Source: Eledone cirrhosa
Lineage: Eukaryota
NCBI GenBank assembly: GCA_964016885.1
Contig: OZ024746.1
Coordinates: forward strand, 85,250,001-85,314,000
Direction: 5' to 3'
Length of the DNA: 64,000 bases
Shown one piece after another: positions 29,242-29,563 of this stretch. Under the pieces are notes generated by a model. The model saw nothing but the letters and a program-made list of their open reading frames with translations, was not told where the DNA came from and made no database searches. The stretch's first letter is position 1. The number at the start of each line of letters is the position of its first letter. The position numbers were made by a program, and so were the translations under genes.

Positions 29242-29326
<85 letters not shown>

Positions 29327-29331
<5 letters not shown>

Positions 29332-29504
29332 AAAAAGTATGACTCCGACGGCAGAGCTCAAGCCGTTTCGACGGCTATTTCTGGACTCAGAAATAACCGT
29401 CGAAAGGGCTTGAGCTCTGCCGTCGGGGTCTTACTTTTTCCTATTTCCCACTCTACTACCCTGGTGTGTTATGGTCCATCTGGTTCCTTACCACAATTCC
29501 TTTG

Positions 29505-29506
<2 letters not shown>
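29327..29506 (+). mobile_element. Hairpin-element family P: 57-bp-arm palindrome plus unique tail
   Basis: Arms 29327-29383 / 29388-29444 with a 4-nt loop; (TA)n on both sides. Confidence 0.85.

Positions 29507-29563
<57 letters not shown>

Follow-up and report, generated by a model that had tools for sequence, protein, structure and literature searches.

Palindromic stubs in Eledone cirrhosa as pairs of Penelope-like element ends that stop inside a hammerhead ribozyme

A palindrome between two TA repeats

The window analysed here is a stretch of 64,000 nt from Eledone cirrhosa. At 29327-29444, it carries a palindrome located between two TA repeats, in which 53 of 57 arm pairs match around a 4-nt centre. 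A 62-nt tail adjoins it on one side only. The hairpin fold has a predicted energy of -105.5 kcal/mol (z = -15.3), which none of 200 shuffled sequences equalled. An assembly artefact was ruled out: The arms differ at 4 of 57 positions, and short-read contigs cross such palindrome centres (run X1 may be the source sample). Positions within the stub family are counted from +1, the A of AGTCC in hammerhead loop II. The locus comprises the following parts:

29264..29328: (TA)n target, left
29327..29387, minus strand: tail-less arm, +1 to +61; +61 is the first fixed 3' end and abuts (TA)n
29384..29388: head-to-head junction without insert; the arms meet at +1 and +5
29388..29506, plus strand: tailed arm from +5 to the second fixed 3' end at about +141
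29394..29405, plus strand: 3' strand of stem II and GAAA half of the core, one substitution compared to the family
29405..29424, plus strand: stem III, palindromic loop and GTC triplet; 29406 is mutated in the window copy
29425..29429, plus strand: GGGGT, the 3' strand of stem I, whose partner ACCCC is found in long copies only, upstream of the core
29445..29506, plus strand: tail, on one side only, that spans from one fixed 3' end to the other and in tandem copies continues into 5' UTR and ORF
29506..29561: (TA)n target, right

The junction type of the window copy is one among many in the family, and its tailed arm carries a tail with a 15-nt deletion relative to most copies (180 vs. 195 nt). 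An earlier note on this DNA had described a hairpin with GTTTC opposite GAAA and no core on its 5' side. This is a trait of the family: Exact patterns found at least 12,477 palindromes with the exact core in the genome (control 0) and 52,348 arms (control 0). A DNA search of the genome with the window hairpin yielded 4058 candidates, 40 of which were scored; most of the arms sampled below lie within the first 14 Mb of contig C1. As the note had said of the stubs, the 5' half of the core is absent from 29327-29506, and so are the 5' strands of stems I and II. No hammerhead was found among the 150 of 324 Rfam matches listed. The proposal that gggc-TT-gagc represents stem III and the cleavage site had to be abandoned. 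In the family, stem III has 5 bp and a 9-nt loop containing a 6-nt palindrome, the triplet is GTC at 29422-29424, and the intact ribozyme is predicted to cut after 29424 (+41). The misreading was due to a substitution: The family sequence at 29402-29406 is GAAAC, and the window copy has G instead of C at 29406, where short-read contigs also carry the family base.

The parent element

That the stubs are ends of a Penelope-like element (PLE), as had been supposed, was confirmed. The parent was found at locus L144 as a 3118-bp tandem unit encoding a 719-aa ORF with its ATG at +232, and, judged by sequence, the stubs derive from this about 3.1-kb PLE with Hydra-clade motifs. The ORF contains RWR, DKT, DIES, YRDD, CxCX5C, YIGLT, CxxC and CxH. 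As expected of an EN+ PLE, a single ORF codes for a reverse transcriptase (RT) followed by a GIY-YIG-type endonuclease (EN), and partial tandem pLTRs, an inverted truncated copy and a one-sided tail are present. In Atlas, the top matches reached 0.99 and clusters bearing GIY-YIG/RVT_1 0.96-0.97. Pfam returned only RVT_1 (E 0.089) and nothing for the whole 719-aa ORF or its EN part; the PDB search returned nothing. A non-LTR retrozyme, i.e. non-coding tandem hammerhead units, was ruled out as the parent, since the unit encodes RT-EN.

Membership in the Hydra clade is suggested by motifs. With the Hydra-clade PLEs as described in PMC8557442 the parent shares an RWx motif, DKT, the CxCX5C linker, CxxC, CxH, a C-terminal GIY-YIG-like EN domain and insertion into (TA)n. 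Those elements are reported to be generally under 3 kb with RWK and a canonical hammerhead, whereas this one measures 3.1-3.5 kb (3118-bp unit, 3.54-kb arrays) and has RWR and mostly a U3:A8 core. The hammerhead of Hydra-1_Obim, as listed, is a sequence different from that of the stub family. Three arrays, L250-L253 (G000:C1:91476581-91487229) and two similar ones, contain three to four units at a spacing of 3.53-3.54 kb. Such tandem arrays of the parent are the pattern expected from a circular or multimeric template.

A complete hammerhead in long copies

Long copies contain a complete type I hammerhead with stems I-III, the 3-8 pair, GAAA and NUH, as seen in a predicted fold and in 37 aligned rows. 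For the ribozyme region of L144, the type I three-way junction is the minimum-energy structure, with an energy not better than that of shuffles (z -0.25). Stem II of the long copies comprises one G-C pair plus 6 bp and is closed by a loop of about 36-39 nt. Therefore, the mirrored 14-bp stem, which had been taken for stem II, is not stem II.

Among the first 100 of 5,848 cores, tallied by hand with a search pattern that fixed the remaining core bases, 75 had U3:A8, 23 C3/A8, two U3/G8 and none C3:G8; CUGANGA did not occur, and position 7 accepted all four bases. The expectation that longer copies contain the missing core was correct. Since the core is mostly U3:A8, a CTGANGA search misses the family ribozyme, and so would any hammerhead scan that requires CUGANGA. 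Within 30 nt of the GAAA-side stem, 42 CTGANGA matches were found. The 30 that were read were rejected as the parent ribozyme, since they arose by coincidence at junctions or belonged to the cores of other families. A longer spacer gave 36 matches, of which 8 were of the parent type; this minority form led to the long copies.

The 3-8 pair is known to covary in nature to an active U3-A8 form (PMC3088659), which has already been reported in PLE repeats from Cercyon (PMC4209133). Compared to the variant described there, stem III of the ribozyme found here has 5 bp, its loop II measures about 36-39 nt, and one subfamily carries a C3/A8 mismatch. This subfamily (23 of the 100 cores; L069, L111, L164, L180) has amplified, which suggests that cleavage may be dispensable.

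One 5' limit and two 3' ends

The 5' ends were determined for 94 of the first 100 places of the 52,348 arms (contig C1 up to 13.84 Mb), a sample that requires +11 to +34 to be intact. Seventy-five arms end between -6 and +11, one at -17 and one at -39, and 17 are long and run through the core. The inversion points are therefore not uniform along the pLTR, as had been predicted. When 20 tailed arms were chosen without a core anchor, 8 ended at -3 to +10, 10 at +16 to +93 and 2 were long; no end fell between -4 and -165. The ends taper from +7 to about -8. This stop falls within loop II, on the 5' side of the 3' strand of stem II and about 4-14 nt away from it.

The 3' ends form two sharp points, +61 in 120 of 307 arms and +140 to +144 in 137 of 307. 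TA repeats adjoin 136 of 146 tail ends. Among 158 tailed arms, no ends were piled up at the ribozyme cut (+42). In three cases only (L265, L270, L268), arms or internal joints start at GGGGT, the first bases past the predicted cut. In L088, L091 and others, runs of 4-15 T were observed just 5' of +1, where the parent has three T. These long runs suggest non-templated A addition or slippage at run-off.

How the two arms are joined

Pairing was counted in 40 palindromes from loci selected without regard to the junction. In all 40, a tailed arm is paired with a tail-less one (99 of 106 over all loci). The same rule is kept by long head-to-head copies (L062/L063, L077/L078, L132). The junctions are diverse: The 40 palindromes display 34 junction types, with 0-4 nt overlap or inserts of 1-19 nt, many of which are inverted copies of the adjacent arm sequence, and loops of 4-6 nt are common. 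Transient snap-back of cDNA ends fits many of the short inserts.

Two outer ends this constant and a strictly one-sided tail might also be expected if a palindromic, non-autonomous master element had been copied whole and its centre had decayed later. In the 30 copies most similar to that in the window, a set biased by the query, one arm asymmetry recurs. It is hard to reconcile such a master with 34 junction types in 40 palindromes, many with inserts rather than deletions, with at least 6 subfamilies whose variants on both arms match long autonomous copies, or with the tail/tail-less pairing in long head-to-head copies. This explanation is the least probable of those considered here.

The earlier note regarded stem II as a preferred fold-back point, so that one cDNA would fold back on the stem II hairpin and prime its own mirror arm. 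Self-priming has been proposed for such palindromes (PMC3846280), and both the inverted inserts and the 4-6 nt loops speak for it; loops of this size, as in the window copy, are also expected of snap-back. Subfamilies could be assigned for both arms in 60 pairs from 110 palindromes, and 57 pairs were of one subfamily (vs. a fraction of 0.24 by random pairing), with which fold-back is equally compatible. However, the turn occurs in loop II and not in stem II, and the two other families cited in the note do not turn at stem II either (see below). Moreover, fold-back of a tailed cDNA cannot yield sequence that was not copied before, and longer tail-less arms consequently count against it. In the 40 palindromes, the tail-less arm reaches further 5' in 13 cases, the tailed arm in 14, and 13 are equal. 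In 12 of 70 arm observations, in which a pair can count twice, the tail-less arm starts between -3 and +7, and the cut in its tailed partner falls at +16 to +115. Mixed pairs exist, too: Three of the 60 typed pairs combine two subfamilies, one of them, L156, clearly and by several bases, and in L040, L057 and L097 the stub family is joined to other hammerhead families at the same point. Fold-back is improbable and largely refuted by these data, unless one-sided deletions after insertion account for the shorter tailed arms.

Three other copies in the window can be compared with this picture:

49040..49210, plus strand: second copy, of another subfamily, with a tailed arm from +1 and a tail-less arm that is cut shorter
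46835..46971: third copy; tail-less arm on the minus strand at 46835-46893, tailed piece begins near +59
16209..16332, plus strand: fourth copy; tailed arm from about +17

The second copy carries the same subfamily variants on both arms. Since the arms of the third do not overlap, its geometry is unobtainable by fold-back of the tailed arm. For the fourth, blastn did not find a mirror arm.

What has been observed is a parent, its complete hammerhead, two fixed 3' ends of which each palindrome has one each, a hard 5' limit and variable junctions. The window hairpin consists of head-to-head 5'-truncated PLE ends in a TA repeat that probably arose by two reverse transcriptions and end joining. 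Two reverse transcripts would start, one from each side of a single DNA break, at the fixed RNA sites +61 and +141. Both would run off the RNA 5' end at a probable transcription start in loop II, and the two cDNAs would then be end-joined, occasionally with snap-back inserts. From arm lengths, subfamilies and mixed-family joints we infer that priming took place twice and separately, mostly on one RNA or on RNAs from the same source, and that end joining followed.

Why the arms stop near +1

Units whose tail runs into the ORF behave differently from other arms. At 30 such loci, 18 units reach +1 and 16 of them pass it, while the other 12 end further 3'; among the 94 other arms, 19 pass +1 (Fisher p 4e-8; 1e-6 with one array collapsed). 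Hence, a structure encountered alike on every pass does not account for the stop.

Of 37 long-arm rows, 35 have the initiator-like hexamer T(T/C)AGT(C/A) at +1 (background 0.25% per position), and 34 have a TATA-like hexamer at -27 to -31 (the pattern matches 2.2% of upstream positions); the rows belong to one family, are not independent and include 2 duplicates, and the promoter motifs were matched to general consensus sequences after the fact. A transcription start at +1 in loop II, predicted from these motifs, is probable, and we infer it less firmly than the two priming events. The 5' half of the core would then be absent because it is located upstream of the start, and the 5' end of the primary transcript could not self-cleave. 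The start site of D. virilis Penelope has been placed within the pLTR (PMC2377424), and TATA/Inr-like motifs have been noted in rotifer pLTRs (PMC3846280).

Single-unit transcripts from +1 predict full-length ends at this point, and only 2 of 18 ORF-bearing full-length copies end there. Consequently, a second type of template must be assumed. The long copies would originate from multi-unit read-through or circular RNA, in which +1 is internal. A G that might derive from a cap is found at -1 in 38 of 116 arms, a biased sample, and no parent has G there; the mirror arm could supply most of these. A junction favoured by a cap base was absent among the 50 junctions listed.

The same two-primer insertion could be combined with a block or cut near +1 other than a transcription start, for instance factors bound to a 3' splice site close to the cap, a hairpin in loop II to which protein is bound, or a cut made in processing of the RNA. 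The site does read as a 3' splice acceptor (pyrimidine tract plus YAG) in most long copies, and the intron of D. virilis Penelope ends at its hammerhead (PMC4209133). A weak hairpin is predicted at about -20 to +5 in L144 and L105, and the tapering of the ends would suit a block. On the other hand, no spliced junction was detected in 193 arms, where the only 2 matches were both TA runs. The RT gets through the stronger stems III and II located 3' of the stop. A block acting on every pass should also arrest the ORF-bearing units, most of which pass +1. Taken together, this is a possible but rather unlikely cause, and run-off at a transcription start is preferred.

A wider scheme would connect the promoter in loop II and the two-site priming with retroviral strong-stop synthesis. 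The transcript would start in the middle of one ribozyme and end at the cut of the next, resulting in a 41-nt terminal redundancy. An RT dimer would prime at the two fixed sites near the RNA 5' end, one for each DNA strand, and make retrovirus-like strong-stop DNA. The more than 12,000 palindromes would be products for which this transfer failed, and successful transfer, or circles made by the ribozyme, would give rise to the long or tandem copies. When an LTR-type strong-stop was tested against the data, the pile-up near +1 fitted, but a constant transfer rate per pass did not (16/18 vs. 19/94). That all these steps hold jointly is doubtful. If true, the scheme would account at once for the tail of PLEs, their inverted pLTR and what the ribozyme does.

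Relation to known systems

In L1 twin priming, two primers on one RNA lead to an inversion. Compared to this, the two cDNAs usually overlap fully here, and the second priming site is fixed. Polymerase-theta end joining, which the junctions described here resemble, uses microhomology and leaves templated inserts at the joint.

An inverted 5'-truncated PLE copy with a one-sided tail is a published architecture (PMC8557442, PMC3846280), for which self-priming was proposed or the mechanism left open in these papers. Head-to-head inverted copy, one-sided tail, partial tandems, (TA)n target and pLTR hammerhead are common to the published insertions and the stub family. In contrast to the published descriptions, the arms are cut here at one fixed point of the ribozyme, in about 80% of the arms that carry the anchor, and the tail comprises about 80 nt instead of 30-40.

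For Poseidon PAc, two internal RT start sites that bound the tail were described, both target strands are nicked and extended, the target is AT-rich, and ribozyme activity is not needed for insertion in vitro (PMC11167929). A difference between the strands in start site is not among the PAc results as reported there, while each palindrome here has one arm per site; as a further difference, the most frequent form in the genome is a run-off product that ends at a fixed 5' point. The origin of the inverted and tailed PLE ends and the role of the hammerhead are described as open (PMC8557442, PMC11167929). In the PLE literature searched, subscription papers aside, no paper describing a fixed stop within loop II was found. 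Within the same limits, no prior account was found of the additions made here, i.e. the parent, the U3:A8 core, the loop II stop, the one-of-each rule with counts and the contrast between first and second pass. Thousands of natural products are available from the family; they show three sharp coordinates (+1, +61, +141) and keep strictly to one arm of each kind. Together, these discriminate between self-priming and two-primer models, and a single base is named for 5'-end mapping.

Other families in the window

Two further sites had been claimed to have the same geometry. The copy at 17964-18033 does read GAAAC-TA-GTA on the minus strand and has its joint in stem II, at a hexamer that is self-complementary. 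This joint is a one-off compared to 30 sampled copies of its family: The core is kept in 29 of 30, none stops in stem II, and the upstream extents range from 32 to 482 nt. The family (17,683 exact copies) is non-coding and forms about 480-bp tandems; the window copy with its tail extends to about 18300. The second site, 54640/55677, is not a hammerhead. The arms at 54640-54665 and 55655-55712 represent the last few dozen bases, one short and one tailed end, of another TA-inserted family, in which GAAAC occurs in 4 of 20 copies and a core upstream in none of the 20. A mariner-like remnant at about 54686-55581, with terminal inverted repeats recognized by eye and a Pfam HTH below the cut-off, splits these two arms.

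At 46212-46375, another family forms a head-to-head palindrome with a complete minimal hammerhead in each arm; other copies of this family start just 5' of stem I. The palindrome at 61683-61785 belongs to a further family, whose longer copies L031, L049 and L102 have a CTGAAGA-type core upstream. The hammerhead of yet another family at 17670-17760 is found head-to-head with the stub family in L040 and L057. Judging from few copies, the stop positions of the other hammerhead families in the window seem to differ from that of the stub family with respect to stem II.

An apparent duplication in L180/L181 turned out to be an artefact of the locus edge. In a contig from another organism (run X6, record 18), a tail-less arm that is complete to +1 is connected to a sense piece from near +43; to judge by this contig, relatives may share the palindrome architecture. 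At L060:1500-1590, a family arm separates exons of a gene that has fibronectin type III-like repeats, as judged by eye from the translations.
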